Shown in pieces: positions 141 to 42,354 of a stretch of 64,000 bases of DNA. The position numbers and the translations under genes were made by a program. The notes beneath the pieces are model-generated. The model made no database searches, was not told the DNA's origin, and saw nothing but the letters and a program-made list of their open reading frames with translations. The DNA lies in the NCBI GenBank assembly GCA_964016885.1, contig OZ024741.1, forward strand, positions 23,250,001 to 23,314,000. Reading direction: 5' to 3'. The first letter of the stretch is position 1; each line of letters starts with the position of its first letter. The stretch is from Eledone cirrhosa (taxonomy: Eukaryota).

Positions 141-600
141 ATTAGAATTGGAGCTCTGAAATAGCAATATATATATGGATGTATATATAATGTATTTTGC
201 AATACACTTTATGCTTAATTAAAAGCATTTTGAAGACCGTTTGCTATTGTTTTAGAGTAGTGACAAATTCACTTACTTTAATCTCAGCAAACAGGGGAGA
301 TAAGCCGACAAGGCCTTGTTTCGCTTTTGTTGAAGCTTATCAAGGCTAACTACCCCTCCTGTCTACTGAGATTACTGATGTTATATTCTTATTGAATTCT
401 AGTAAACATTCAGGAACTGATTATACAGAGCGATTGTTGGTCAGGCAGAAATTAAAAATTAGAATTGGAGCTCTGTTTGCTGAGATTAAAGTAAGTGAAT
501 TTGTCACTACTCTAAAACAATAGCATACGGTCTTCAAAATGCTTTTAATTAAGCATAAAGTGTATTGCAAAATACATTATATATACATCCATATATATAT
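141..600 (-). mobile_element. Non-coding fold-back element: one ~317-bp hammerhead-bearing monomer plus a partial inverted copy; Penelope pLTR/retrozyme-like
   Basis: ATTAGAATTGGAGCTCTG at 141 and 458; 474-600 is the reverse complement of ~168-293; flanked by (TA)n; shares blocks with the 21881-23115 monomer (CTCTGAAATAGC, TTTTGAAGACC, CAGGAACTG, GGCAGAAATT). Confidence 0.75.
302..348 (-). ncRNA. Type I hammerhead ribozyme, U3-A8 core variant
   Basis: Minus strand AGCC-UUGAUAA-GCUU caaca AAAGC-GAAA-CAAGGCCUUG-UC-GGCU; stems I-III form, GUC cleavage triplet. Confidence 0.75.
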
Positions 601-760
601 ATGTTTGTTAATATATCCATTTGTTAATATATCGTATTTTTACTCCAATAATTTGTTGAGTGCTTTATATCAGTTATAAAAATATTTGCTTGTTGTATCC
701 CAACAATTTAAATGGAACTTCTACATATATATATATATATATATATATGTTTATATATAT

Positions 761-1217
761 CGACCTTACACACTTACATCTCTCTAAGACAATGTCTCTG
801 GACCGAGATCTTTGGTACTACGCAGTAATACAGAAAACCCGCCTTGCCTATGTACAAAGCGAAACCTACAGTCAGTAGGCACCTCTTAACCAAATATACA
901 CCCCAATCCACTACTCCTACCCTATCCTCCCACTCCCACCAACAGCACGAGATAATGAGATCGAGATCGTGTAGGTGTCACGACAAAAAACACACACAGT
1001 CCACACTGTAATGCAGCCGTGTAGTTAACACAGTAAAAAGTTCCCAGTTCCACACTGTAAATGTGGTTGGTGTTAGGAAGGGCATCCAGTCGTAGAAAAC
1101 CTGCCAGATAGTCCTATATGAGCGAGACACGGTCACCAGACCAACCTTGCCTCAAGTTGGACAACTCCCGTCTAACCCATGCTAGCGTGGAAAATGGACG
1201 TTAAACGAAGATGATGA
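761..1217 (+). mobile_element. RTE-clade LINE 3' fragment
   Basis: Encodes DLTHLHLSKTMSLDRDLW as in 58027-59445 family; shared 3' UTR (GTTAGGAAGGGCATCCAG) and (GAT)n tail. Confidence 0.85.
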
Positions 1218-1250
1218 TATATATATATATATATGTGTTTATATATATAT

Positions 1251-1946
1251 ATCATCATCATCATCATCGTTTAACATCCATCTTCCACGCTTGCATGGGT
1301 TTGGACGGGAGTTTTCACACTTGAGGCAAGATTGGTTGTCTTGCTCGTTTTCTACGGCAGGATGCCCTTCCTAACACCAACCACGTTTACAGTGTGGACT
1401 GGGAGGTTTTTACCGTGTTACCTACACGGCCACATTACACCGTGGACTGTGTGTTTTTTTGTCGTCACACCTACACGACCTCATTTGTTTCGGGCTGGAT
1501 GTTGTGGTACCAACATAACTTTACATTGAAAGGGGTGGTGTGGATGGGGTGGGGGTAGTGGACCGGGGGTGTATTTTTGTTAGAGGTGCCTACTGACTAG
1601 TAGGTTTCACTTTGTACTTAGGCAAGGCGGGTCTTCTGTATTACTGTGTAGCGCCAAAGGTCTCGGTCCAGTGACATTGTCTTGGAGAGGTGTAAGTGTG
1701 TGAGGTCGGAATTTATCAAGTCGTCCCAGGTTTTTCTGGATCTGCCTACTCCGTGGCTACCGTCTATTTTTATTGCCCTGCACTTTGTTATACAGCTGTC
1801 GTCTTTCATGCGCATCACGTGACCATACCAACGTAGTCTTCTCTCGAGTAAACAACATCTGATCCCTCTTATTTCTAATTTTTTCCTTAGTTCGTTTATG
1901 CTTTGCCGTTCACGTATATTACTATTATACATCCAGCGGAGCATGC
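1251..1946 (-). mobile_element. RTE-clade LINE 3' fragment, tail-to-tail with 761-1217
   Basis: ORF 1618-1944 MLRWM...RRLRWYGHVMR...; 3' UTR and (GAT)n tail. Confidence 0.9.
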
Positions 1947-2020
1947 ATATATATATATATATATAAACATATATATATATATATATATATATATATATAT
2001 ATATATATATATATATATAT

Positions 2021-39098: not shown

Positions 39099-39468
39099 TT
39101 AGAATATAAAAGTAGGTAGAAACTGTGGAAGTGGGTAGAGCCTGTGGAAGTGGGTAGTGATGGTTGGCATGTGCAGTGTATTTTGTACATTGTGTCTCTT
39201 ACCTATTATATTCTCTTCATTTACTGTCCTTTTGGTTACCTTATCTACCACACATCCACTCTCATATTCATCATATCATCTGTGTAATAATGGCTGCCAT
39301 TCAATCTGCCTGTATTCTATTCCTTCCACCACCAACACCACTGTCACCACAGTGAGAAGATAGGATGTCTTCATTCCTGGCTGGTGTTGATGCAGAACAT
39401 ATGAGAGTCATTCAGAAGATGGAAAAGAAGATTCATGATATGAAAGAAAGAGAAAGCAGGATGAAGAA

Positions 39469-40450
39469 GTGAAGATGTCTGAGACAGTAGCTCTTGACAG
39501 TCCATCATTCAACTCAGTTATTAATGCTGAAATCTTCAAATCAGCACCACCCACAAAAATCACTGCGAATAAAGCCAACTCTTCATGCCACGTGGGAACG
39601 GGAGAAACTATTGATATAACAAACAAGTACTTTTTTTACATCACAATTGCGAAGAGTCTTGATCATGATATGTCTGAACTTTCAATTTCTCCCTCAACAG
39701 TTTATCGAACAAGAACCAGTGACTGTGAAAAGATGGCTCAGGAAATCGAGTTATCCACTTTCCCACCTGAAGACAGATCCTGGCTTGTCTTTCACTGGGA
39801 TGGAGAGTTATTACTATTGGCTTCTCGATCCAGTACACTCGAAGATCGGATTGCAGTTTTAATTACAGGAAAAGGAAAGGAGGATTTCTTAGGTGTTCCA
39901 ATTGCAAGAGATGGAACTGGACAACAAATTACTAAAGTTGTTTTGAAGGAAATTCAACAACTCAAAATTGAAGATAGAATAATTGATGTCCTTCAACACC
40001 CCCACCTGTAACACCGGCATACACCAAGGAGCTAATACAAACATTGAGGCAACTCTGAAAAAATTCCTCCTGTAGCTGGCTTACCACCATCATATTCTTC
40101 AACTGGTTTTGAAGAAAGTTTTTGATATCTTTCACCCAGCATCTGGTCCCAGTATTCCAATGTTCAAAAAGTTCCAGGAACATTTGGACTCCATCAATAA
40201 GTCTTATTATCAAACTATCCTGGACGATGATGAACCCATGCAAGATTTTTACAAGCAAAAGACAGAGGAGATGGTTGTATATCTACTGACTGTACTTGCT
40301 TTCTGGAGATCATCCCTGAGAAGACTATGTCAGGTTCATAAAGTTCTCCCTTCTCTATCTTGGTGGTTGGCCATCTCCCAATCCTTGGTCCCAGAAGCTT
40401 ATCACCAGTCTCGTTGGATGGCTCAGGCTATATATGTATTCAAGATAGTA
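39469..40450 (+). pseudogene. Decayed DDE transposase, probably hAT superfamily (hATm-like; subfamily tentative)
   Basis: FHWDGELL, DRIAVL..FLGVP..GTG, NTG..GA, LAYHHHILQL, SGPSIPMFKKFQ, PEAYHQSRWMAQAIY; stops and frameshifts. Confidence 0.7.
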
Positions 40451-40837
40451 AGTCCAGAGCTTTACAAAAAGTCATTTCTTGTTATAAATTTCATTCACAA
40501 AAACTGTTTCTCAGTTTAACCCTAATATTGTTGAGTATTTTGAACATATTCCTCCTCATTTTCATTTCATTTTGTTCTGTCGAGTGGTTTCCTCATTGGA
40601 TTCAGTAGAGTGAACAGAAAAAACAATATACCAGAGACCAGCTCCAAAACATTGTCATAAATAATCATCACCTGACCTGACTTACCTTAAATGGGACAAC
40701 CCATCTAACACATGCTAGTGTGGAGAATGGCCATTAAATGATGATGAGATGGCGATGAAACAGTTAAGAAACTTTCTATTGCCACATATATGTCTCTCAT
40801 TAAAAGAAAATTACCCAAGCAAGAAGAGTGAGTTTAA

Positions 40838-41251
40838 CCCTTTAGCTACCAACCCGGCAAAACCAGCTCTGGTTCTATGAAATAAAGCCACCCATTTTAA
40901 ATGTTTCCAATTTAAATTAAAACCTTCCAACATAATTTTATATAAGAATCTTACATTAAGTTACTATCTTAGTAATGAAATAATTGTTTCTACTTTTGGC
41001 ACAAGGCCAGCAATTACCCAGTACATTACTGGTACTTTATTTTATCGACCCCGTAAGGATGAAAGGCAAAGTTAACCTCGGCAGGATTTGAACTCAGACC
41101 ATAAAGGGATGTAACTCTTTGCTGCAAAGCATGGCATCCAACCCTCTACCGATATTGCCAAATGAAATAATCGTTTAAATAAATCCCTCAAAATTCTTTA
41201 TTAATTAATTACAATAGAGTGTATTTCATTAGAAATATGGCCATGAAAGGG
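40838..41251. mobile_element. piggyBac-like MITE with a nested SINE (40985-41160, TSD AATGAAATAAT)
   Basis: TTAA|CCCTTT..AAAGGG|TTAA; TSD at 40974-40984 and 41161-41171; uninterrupted relative at ~55840-56070. Confidence 0.78.
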
Positions 41252-42317
41252 TTAAGAAACTTTCTATTACCTCATATATGTCCCACATGAAAAGAAAATG
41301 ATCAGAGCTAGAAAAGTAAGTTTAATGTTTTATTTACTGGCTACTTCTGTGGCATAGGACAACTTAAGCAGAACTGAGTGAAGCTACTTAATACTACATA
41401 GCCATGAAAAATAATATATGTGATTTGGTCCAGCAGCTTAATGACTCTGCTAACACATATTTCTTGATATTTTCTTAAACATCTACTGCTTCCCATGTTC
41501 TATTTACATTGATAACAATGGTATACACAGATTTCCTCTACCATCTCATCCCATCTAAACTGAGATTAAGGACAGTTTATGAAAATAGCTTGGTTACCAA
41601 GAGAAAATAGTTGTGCTCTGAATTATTCATTATACTTTGTGATTGCTAAATTAGAATTTTTTGTTATGTTCAGTTCAGTTGAGTATTGGCATGGAGATTT
41701 ACTTTTATATGGAGGACAATAACAAAACCTAACTGTAGTATATATATATATATATACATACGTACATATATATACATACATACGTACATATATATACATA
41801 CATACGTACATATATATACATACATACGTATATATATATACATACATACGTATATATACATACATACATATATATACGCACATACATACATACATACATA
41901 TATATATATATACACATACACCTCAAAACATCTACACACACATACACATGCATGCAGACATATCTACCTAGTTGATGTTGTGTAAATCCCAATGAGAGAG
42001 TCTTGTGTCTATTGGTAAAAAATTATTAAATTATAAAACCAGAAGAACATACATACATATACATACATATATACACATAGATAGATATATACATACATAT
42101 ATATATACATACATATACATACATATATACACATAGATATATATATACATATATATATACATACATATATATATACATACATATATATATACACATATAT
42201 ATATATATACATATATATATATATATATATAATGAAAATTTGAACAGGGACAGAACAGAGAGGCAGTACGATAAATGTTTATTAAATTCACGCTCAGGAG
42301 AGTGGGGGGTAGGTGGG

Positions 42318-42354
42318 GGACGACGTTTCGGGCATAAGCCCTTCTTCAGGTGAG
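42318..42354 (-). ncRNA. Minimal hammerhead core with weak stem I, in a probable Penelope 3' remnant (~42230-43030)
   Basis: AC-CUGAAGA-aGGGC uuau GCCC-GAAA-CG-UC-GU; AATAAA ~40 nt downstream. Confidence 0.65.

Follow-up and report, generated by a model that had tools for sequence, protein, structure and literature searches.

Hammerhead ribozymes of type I are a recurrent component of Penelope-like retrotransposons (PLEs) and of retrozymes. In PLEs they lie in the pseudo-long terminal repeats (pLTRs) and follow the consensus 'CUGANGAH ... GAAAN Palind NU H', with palindromic positions 15.2-16.2 and loop 3, and action as dimers has been proposed (Cervera and de la Pena, 2014; PMC4209133). The same study describes several families per genome with different or shared palindromes, as well as variants with a U3-A8 core or a 2-bp helix I (D. 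virilis); in its Fig. S3 ACGU, ACUAGU and AUAUAU turn up again and again in species without close relationship, and one palindrome is common to two of the three Aedes families. Dimers are needed by two kinds of axolotl retrozyme motif, one with a 1-bp helix III under a tetraloop of palindromic sequence and one whose helix II has U.U at its base (HHR_Amex2), and 126,247 hammerheads have been counted in the axolotl (Cervera and de la Pena, 2020; PMC7229834). Recently, retrozymes were linked to PLE pLTRs and a local expansion by unequal crossover was proposed (Li, Clavereau and Pollet, 2026; bioRxiv 10.64898/2026.07.22.740005). Here we analyse the hammerheads in a stretch of 64,000 nt from Eledone cirrhosa (positions 23,250,001-23,314,000 of OZ024741.1, within a genome of 2,996 Mb), called the window throughout. 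They reside in end repeats of PLEs and in retrozymes without an open reading frame (ORF), and cleavage very likely requires that two copies pair, a condition under which stem III would have to remain self-complementary while its letters drift. A variable palindromic helix III and dimer action are already published (PMC4209133), hence the palindromes as such add little to what is known.

Hammerhead motifs and the self-complementarity of stem III

The window has 38% GC and is rich in (TA)n and retroelement remnants. An earlier note on this DNA had listed eleven hammerheads in it, and each was recovered at its position and with its stem III sequence. They represent seven insertions of six families, matching the estimate of about six given there: A (302), B (6316 and 24603), C (10579), D (22 kb), E (12663 and 14018) and G (42318), with the four ACGCGT motifs of D forming one insertion and the two E motifs another. 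The type I core CUGANGA (or its U3-A8 form), GAAA, UH and helices I and II are present at nine of the 11 sites, but not at 24603 and 12663, so that nine complete type I motifs remain of the eleven.

303-347 (-), hammerhead A: U3-A8 core TTGATAA (not C3-G8), stem III ACAAGGCCTTGT at 308-319
6319-6355 (+), hammerhead B: core CTGACGA, U.U at the stem II base, stem III ACTAGT at 6346-6351
10579-10634 (+), hammerhead C: long stem II, stem III ATATATAT at 10621-10628
14018-14075 (+), hammerhead E: stem III ATGATCAT at 14063-14070
22042-22084 (-), hammerhead D: stem III ACGCGT
22352-22394 (-), hammerhead D: stem III ACGCGT
22632-22674 (+), hammerhead D: stem III ACGCGT
22942-22984 (+), hammerhead D: stem III ACGCGT
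42320-42351 (-), hammerhead G: 2-bp stem I, bulged A before stem II, stem III ACGT at 42323-42326
12663-12720 (-), decayed hammerhead E: AAAA replaces GAAA (G12 lost), palindrome broken to ATGAACAT
24603-24912 (+), truncated B copy: starts at U4 of the core, with C3 and the 5' stem I arm missing

Judged by its sequence, the 24603 copy is 5'-truncated and not a ribozyme. Cleavage of hammerhead A is predicted after the C at 307, and U3-A8 is found in three listed core/stem II variants that together account for 43 of the 44 sites of this family. Hammerhead B (6319-6355) has one mismatch in stem I, and all 33 sites of family G share the stem III ACGT. At the base of stem II, G has G10.1-C11.1 and a preceding unpaired base, A and C open with G-C, and B, D and E have U.U.

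The descriptor comprised the core CUGANGA or UUGANAA, stem II, GAAA, A15.1..U16.1, H17 and no fewer than 2 bp in stem I; a palindrome filter (perfect, at least 4 nt) was applied only after descriptor matching. All nine complete window motifs carry a short, perfectly palindromic stem III, compared to 0.035 per window on average, and never more than 2, in 200 block-wise dinucleotide shuffles. Shuffled sequence, which had been named as a check, does not reproduce the motif frequency, and this difference, together with the conservation of each motif in many dispersed copies, refutes an origin by chance in AT-rich repeats, although the loose descriptor with an unconstrained stem III gives 0.89 sites per shuffled window and one such match, at 18458 (-), occurs in the window. 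An Rfam scan of the window at gathering thresholds gave no match, hammerhead families included. Three further candidates were rejected: 18458 (-) has a non-palindromic stem III and belongs to no family, 3514 (+) has GACA for GAAA and lies inside a helicase frame, and 36961 (-) lacks a proper stem I. The latter is part of a degenerate hammerhead-like core at 36900-36965 (-), in which stem II is kept and which has two partial relatives only.

The genome was sampled in 119 stretches of 10 kb (1.19 Mb) at regular positions on 19 contigs, weighted to contigs C1-C4, with C21 and beyond lying outside the sample. These stretches contain 145 sites, in 58 of them, versus 13.5 in shuffles, which gives 110 motifs per Mb (bootstrap 77-151) and roughly 3.3x10^5 genome-wide (2.3-4.5x10^5). 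The large genomic population suspected from the window alone is thus borne out, and the window is typical of the genome, because the sample's descriptor finds 8 real sites in it (about 125 per Mb). Stem III of the 145 sample sites, about 13 of which are expected by chance, is a perfect palindrome in 83, self-complementary with G.U in 18, interrupted by a central 2x2 mismatch in 13, of odd length in 6 and otherwise built in 25. Self-complementarity, which the earlier note had described as kept, therefore holds for 101 of the 145 sites, but some families are non-palindromic. From all loci collected, 431 distinct sites were obtained; 21 clusters of at least three sites and two of seven pairs that passed a structure filter make up 23 families, while 5 pairs and 52 singletons stand outside the pairing test described below. 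Four families (F1, F9, F18 and F23) use the U3-A8 core. Two others, F7 and F13 (e.g. L011, L035, L053, L056), are abundant hammerheads with the non-palindromic stem III AGAACT or AGGACT, which as dimers would bear a central tandem A.A or G.A mismatch.

Variants of the family palindromes with a single change are of the G.U type in 23 cases, of the C.A type in 3 and of other kinds in 6, and this bias indicates that self-complementarity is maintained at the RNA level. A point against this is that a single sequence, ATATGTAT, makes up 17 of the 23 G.U variants; these probably share it by descent, and without them the numbers are 6 versus 3.

Stem III is too short to close alone in five of the six window families: the monomer hairpin costs +4.7 to +6.0 kcal/mol or is impossible in B-E and G, and +0.4 kcal/mol in A. 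When two-unit transcripts were folded under constraint, the double hammerhead in cis lay below two monomers by 7.7 kcal/mol (D, B) and 1.9 kcal/mol (A). It is rather doubtful that the ribozymes instead act as monomers in vivo, with a short stem III stabilised by contacts between loops 1 and 2 or by proteins and with the palindrome as a relic or by-product. Such behaviour would suit family A, which can form a 4-bp stem with a GGCC loop, F20 with its stable 7-bp stem, and the non-palindromic AGAACT families (26 sites, F7 and F13), and invertebrate retrozyme hammerheads have been reported as efficient monomers (PMC7229834). However, G and two other families (ACGT, ATAT) leave no room for a loop, and the self-complementarity of the sample sites (83 Watson-Crick, 18 with G.U) was not asked for by the descriptor and stands against 1.5 perfect sites expected from shuffles.

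Carrier elements and insertion anatomy

Families C and G are the 3' ends of PLEs with a reverse transcriptase (RT) and GIY-YIG ORF, an assignment made from motifs read in the sequence and from element architecture. The following parts lie in the window:

4603-6174 (+), family C PLE, 5'-truncated: broken RT-thumb/C-terminal GIY-YIG ORF (4605-5840) and start of the 3' untranslated region (UTR)
6641-7191 (+), family C PLE: middle piece of the 3' UTR, 85% to locus L135 (blastn)
7169-10331 (+), long interspersed element (LINE) with APE endonuclease and RT, inserted in the C element, without a hammerhead; Pfam Exo_endo_phos and RVT_1
10332-10698 (+), family C PLE: 3' end (pLTR region), abutting (TA)n, 97% to L135 (blastn)
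42231-43029 (-), family G PLE: 3' end, 5'-truncated, 97% to locus L254

Since L135 aligns to the window in the pieces 4603-6174, 6641-7191 and 10332-10698, the 10579 motif is the 3' end of a C element that was split by a B insertion and by the LINE, which falls in a gap of this alignment and has two long open frames (7169-8017 and 8018-10042). The C remnant at 4605-5840 shares 73-91% identity (tblastn) with the 620-aa RT and GIY-YIG ORF of locus L261. Elsewhere, 23 of 29 further loci with a GIY-YIG match have the C 3' end downstream of it; only 3' hammerheads were seen at the loci of this family, for whose 4603-6174 part there are 41,584 preliminary candidate matches in the genome. Of the 40 places listed for family G, the window included, 28 are identical over all 181 nt, and full-length relatives of this family combine RT, a linker zinc finger and GIY-YIG (ORFs of L252 and L254). 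The 987-aa ORF of L252 has DKG, RT motifs, a CX2-5CxxC linker and GIY-YIG, and in L254 two 633-bp direct repeats (pLTRs), 98.9% identical, flank the ORF and carry one hammerhead each, 4718 bp apart. A single ORF with RT and C-terminal GIY-YIG lies upstream of a hammerhead repeat in L252, in L261 and in the window remnant. The Pfam results argue the other way: matches of the C and G ORFs are weak (E 0.002-0.004, below curated cut-offs; GIY-YIG of the window C remnant E 0.0034), and the L261 ORF has no Pfam match.

Families A, B and D are ORF-less tandem retrozymes, very likely with insertion ends of the Penelope type. They and family E, which has a longer unit, are inserted as follows:

141-600, family A insertion: 317-bp ORF-less unit; arms 141-475 (-) with a 26-nt tail and 473-600 (+) untailed, both ending in (TA)n
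6139-6646, family B insertion: unit of about 466 bp, nested in the C element; arms 6311-6646 (+) and 6139-6298, inverted
12623-14115, family E insertion: 1.85-kb unit; inverted arm 12623-13058 (-) and arm 13066-14115 (+)
21881-23115, family D insertion: 310-bp ORF-less unit, in (TA)n, with four ACGCGT hammerheads; arms 21881-22510 (-), 2.0 units, tailed, and 22512-23115 (+), 1.9 units, untailed

Head-to-tail units with one type I hammerhead each and no ORF reach 9.5 in D, 3 in A and 5 in B, the latter as 460-468 bp units in locus L032. The circular self-paired folds of the units of these retrozymes are more stable than those of 30 crude doublet shuffles per unit (minimum free energy -69.0 versus -48.1+-3.8, -75.1 versus -48.6+-5.6 and -147.5 versus -99.9+-4.5). 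A and D are sister retrozymes with a flank identity of 71% over 444 columns and a shared tail sequence; they differ in core, stem I and stem III. Family A has 2009 preliminary candidate matches in the genome, and its best 40 places are 97-100% identical. Matches of family B with equal score follow each other every 105-200 kb or so (11 listed) on contig C20 between 3.55 and 4.93 Mb, which suggests a large segmental tandem array. Three runs of unknown kind each contain one contig of 340 nt with the D unit (310 + 30, a graph circle); it was not used as evidence, because tandem DNA gives the same. For the 1.85-kb E unit no ORF was found, and tblastn with six PLE queries gave no match in the E loci L255, L256, L257 and L259; a helper PLE was identified for none of A, B, D and E.

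Insertion anatomy was mapped at seven D loci and at 15 A loci, namely the window and 14 of 29 others picked by eye, mostly with several motifs. Two back-to-back arms are present in six of the seven D loci and in 14 of the 15 A loci. A tailed and an untailed arm are combined in all five D insertions whose two ends can be seen and in 12 of the 14 two-armed A insertions, the remaining two having an arm that breaks off elsewhere. Both arms of such an insertion end in (TA)n, but one of them reaches a distal 3' site and the other stops 26-40 nt before it (window, L007, L105, L266, L267 and 14 A loci). Copies of A, E and G have a 3' end fixed at (TA)n, with two such ends in E, and variable 5' ends. 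Every multi-unit D insertion carries its own variants, present in all its measured units. At L266 (contig C4, 267.86 Mb) one variant sits in alternate units of both arms (3 and 5 of 5; 1 and 3 of 4), as a dimeric template would give. A PLE tail and two RT start sites have been described (PMC8557442; PMC11167929), and the anatomy of A and D would fit their action on circular or multimeric RNA. Thus, the two-armed, tail/no-tail structure of ORF-less arrays supports a mobilisation of retrozymes by PLE proteins from such RNA.

We propose that two copies in one transcript, either tandem units or two pLTRs, would combine into a double hammerhead, with stem III as well as stem I paired between the copies, as geometry and published work suggest. 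Cuts at two successive units would release a monomer that may circularise, and the PLE protein could then prime both ends of one cut at two start sites, leaving back-to-back arms of which only one is tailed. The likely partner is a neighbouring identical copy in the same transcript, hence any self-complementary stem III would work and self-complementarity is kept while the letters are free; families could diverge by G.U steps and compensations, and family specificity would arise incidentally as both helices diverge. Little activity would be expected of solo copies and of those on opposite strands.

Several observations weigh against this mechanism. The double hammerhead lies 5.7-7.7 kcal/mol above the unconstrained minimum-energy fold, and family A could close its 4-bp stem III alone and gains only 1.9 kcal/mol from the dimer. 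PLE min-HHRs cleave weakly even as dimers (PMC4209133), and eight of nine Xenopus retrozyme dimers failed to cleave (bioRxiv 10.64898/2026.07.22.740005). Activity published for this class is thus low or patchy, and therefore many copies may never cut. In addition, insertion of PAc in vitro did not need hammerhead cleavage (PMC11167929). The last result would also be in line with a palindrome that serves as a DNA-level signal, a protein site or hairpin for the endonuclease or RT of the element, with RNA cleavage irrelevant. We disfavour this possibility as highly improbable: insertions end about 110-170 nt or more downstream of the motif and not at it, ATATGTAT is common among the family variants but its reverse complement ATACATAT is absent, and the U3-A8 core covariation and the stem I compensation (GTAGTC/GATTAC versus GTAATC/GGTTAC) are signatures of RNA structure.

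The surroundings of these insertions hold other features:

610-722 and 24418-24560, 3' ends of another abundant repeat, adjoining the A and truncated B copies; this repeat lies beside F2-type hammerheads elsewhere (20 of 119 random loci)
2633-4400 (+), PIF1-like helicase frames, which we take to be Helitron-like
17625-17787 (+), exon-like, with AG/GT borders and an open 54-codon frame; possibly part of a host gene with these elements in its introns (PDB and Atlas searches with its peptide were uninformative)
28696-36915, 48-bp satellite of 155 copies and a second, diverged array of 9
18720-21342, 39439-40519, 44146-45165 and 57952-59445, presumably further LINE/RT remnants and a transposase-like remnant

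Stem III as a proposed pairing code

From the palindromes, the earlier note had concluded that dimeric hammerheads are under selection and that distinct palindromes could act as family-specific pairing codes. The dimer type is upheld by structure and by precedents in the literature, available for every sub-type, but the code built on it finds no support. The 23 families use 16 stem III sequences, so that a unique palindrome for each family does not exist: six sequences are shared by two to three families each (ATATATAT by three; ACTAGT, ATATGTAT, ACGT, AGAACT and ACCGGT by two), and ATATATAT or its G.U variant ATATGTAT serves five families. The AGAACT/AGGACT families, moreover, have no palindrome.

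Stem I, which the note had left aside, has to be counted as well. According to our own reasoning on the geometry of the double hammerhead, molecule 1 provides the 5' stem I arm, the core and stem II, and molecule 2 the UH and the 3' stem I arm; the stem I arms lie on different molecules and therefore both helices pair across. Compatibility was scored by simple helix energies at 50, 70 and 90% of cognate strength for 506 ordered pairs, with stem III permuted among families as the null. At the 70% threshold 35 pairs are compatible in stem I and 55 in stem III; 10 are compatible in both helices, which leaves 496 predicted incompatible; none of the 30 ordered pairs of the six window families is compatible in both helices. 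Compared to the permutation null, compatible pairs are in excess: 13 versus 5.1 at 50%, 10 versus 3.8 at 70% and 6 versus 2.5 at 90% (P(null>=obs) 0.003, 0.013 and 0.063). The excess persists after lumping flank-linked families (3.45 versus 1.87 at 70%), where four of the six flank links rest on 2 x 2 sequences that are probably neighbouring repeats, so that lumping them is the more conservative choice. Family C has five stem III partners elsewhere in the genome and one fully reciprocal predicted partner, F11.

With 23 families, simple helix energies and no tree, and hence with limited power, families thus appear mostly incompatible, the palindrome alone does not seem to be the cause, and we see no sign that incompatibility was selected. 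An excess of compatible pairs is the opposite of selected orthogonality and points to descent and drift. Nevertheless, pairing mostly with one's own kind may hold in effect once both helices are counted. It is very unlikely that a selected code, in stem III alone or with stem I, keeps co-resident families apart and thereby protects their abundant RNAs from cutting or trapping by one another in trans. Such a code would account for the 0 of 30 window pairs and 10 of 506 overall that form both helices at 70% of cognate strength, for the divergence of the sister retrozymes A and D, whose cores and stems I and III are not the same, and for pairs like F2/F6 (same stem I, different stem III) and F0/F14 (same stem III, different stem I). 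Yet compatible pairs exceed the null at all three thresholds, also after lumping, C is matched reciprocally by F11, ATATATAT and ATATGTAT are spread over five families, and tandem copies give a partner in cis, therefore no code in trans is needed. Similarly unlikely is a two-part address of stem I and stem III. In that case the genome would house about 3x10^5 hammerheads of 23 or more families, selection would prevent co-active families from cleaving, in trans, one another's RNA or solo copies located in host introns, and non-autonomous retrozymes would exploit or avoid the address of their helper PLE. These families form a natural panel, in which C and F11 share both stems, F0 and F14 stem III only and F2 and F6 stem I only, so that cleavage of homo- versus hetero-dimers is testable. 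We found no test of cross-family pairing in the literature searched, on which Lunse et al. and the preprint supplements may bear.

Comparison with described systems

The hammerheads of the window resemble those of PMC4209133 in their type I fold, their solo copies and opposite-strand pairs, and the occurrence of U3-A8 and of a 2-bp helix I. They differ from what that paper describes in the longer palindromes (8-12 nt) and in the U.U instead of G10.1-C11.1 at the stem II base of B, D and E. Their density is also far above its 2,000-9,000 per genome, with the reservation that descriptors differ; the same reservation applies to the estimated load of about one hammerhead per 9 kb, which is above the counts in the cited papers. 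A short palindromic stem III and the predicted cleavage as dimers further recall the small PLE hammerheads of Lunse, Weinberg and Breaker (RNA Biol, PMC5785218), going by the title of that study and its summary in PMC6765202.

At the DNA level, A, B and D are similar to metazoan non-LTR (long terminal repeat) retrozymes (PMC7229834; bioRxiv 10.64898/2026.07.22.740005) in that units of a few hundred bp without an ORF are repeated in tandem, with one type I hammerhead in each unit and a self-paired circular fold, although the B units (460-468 bp) slightly exceed the range of 150-450 bp given for these elements. A and D are in addition two-armed with the tail asymmetry of PLEs; tails, palindromes and head-to arrangements are not mentioned in the preprint text (bioRxiv 10.64898/2026.07.22.740005), as far as a word search goes.

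The elements with C and G ends are like C-terminal EN+ (endonuclease-containing) PLEs of the Neptune/Nematis type (Craig et al., 2021, PMC8557442; Frangieh et al., 2024, PMC11167929) in the order of RT and GIY-YIG, in 5' truncation and in partial tandems. The inverted 5' copy, a 30-40-bp tail and (TA)n targets also agree with the PLEs of these studies, and family G has DKG and the CX2-5CxxC linker. Judged by motif reading, the linker of family C, CxC-x5-C-x5-C, does not fit CX2-5CxxC exactly. Finally, the tailed and untailed arms of A and D match the two RT start sites of PMC11167929.

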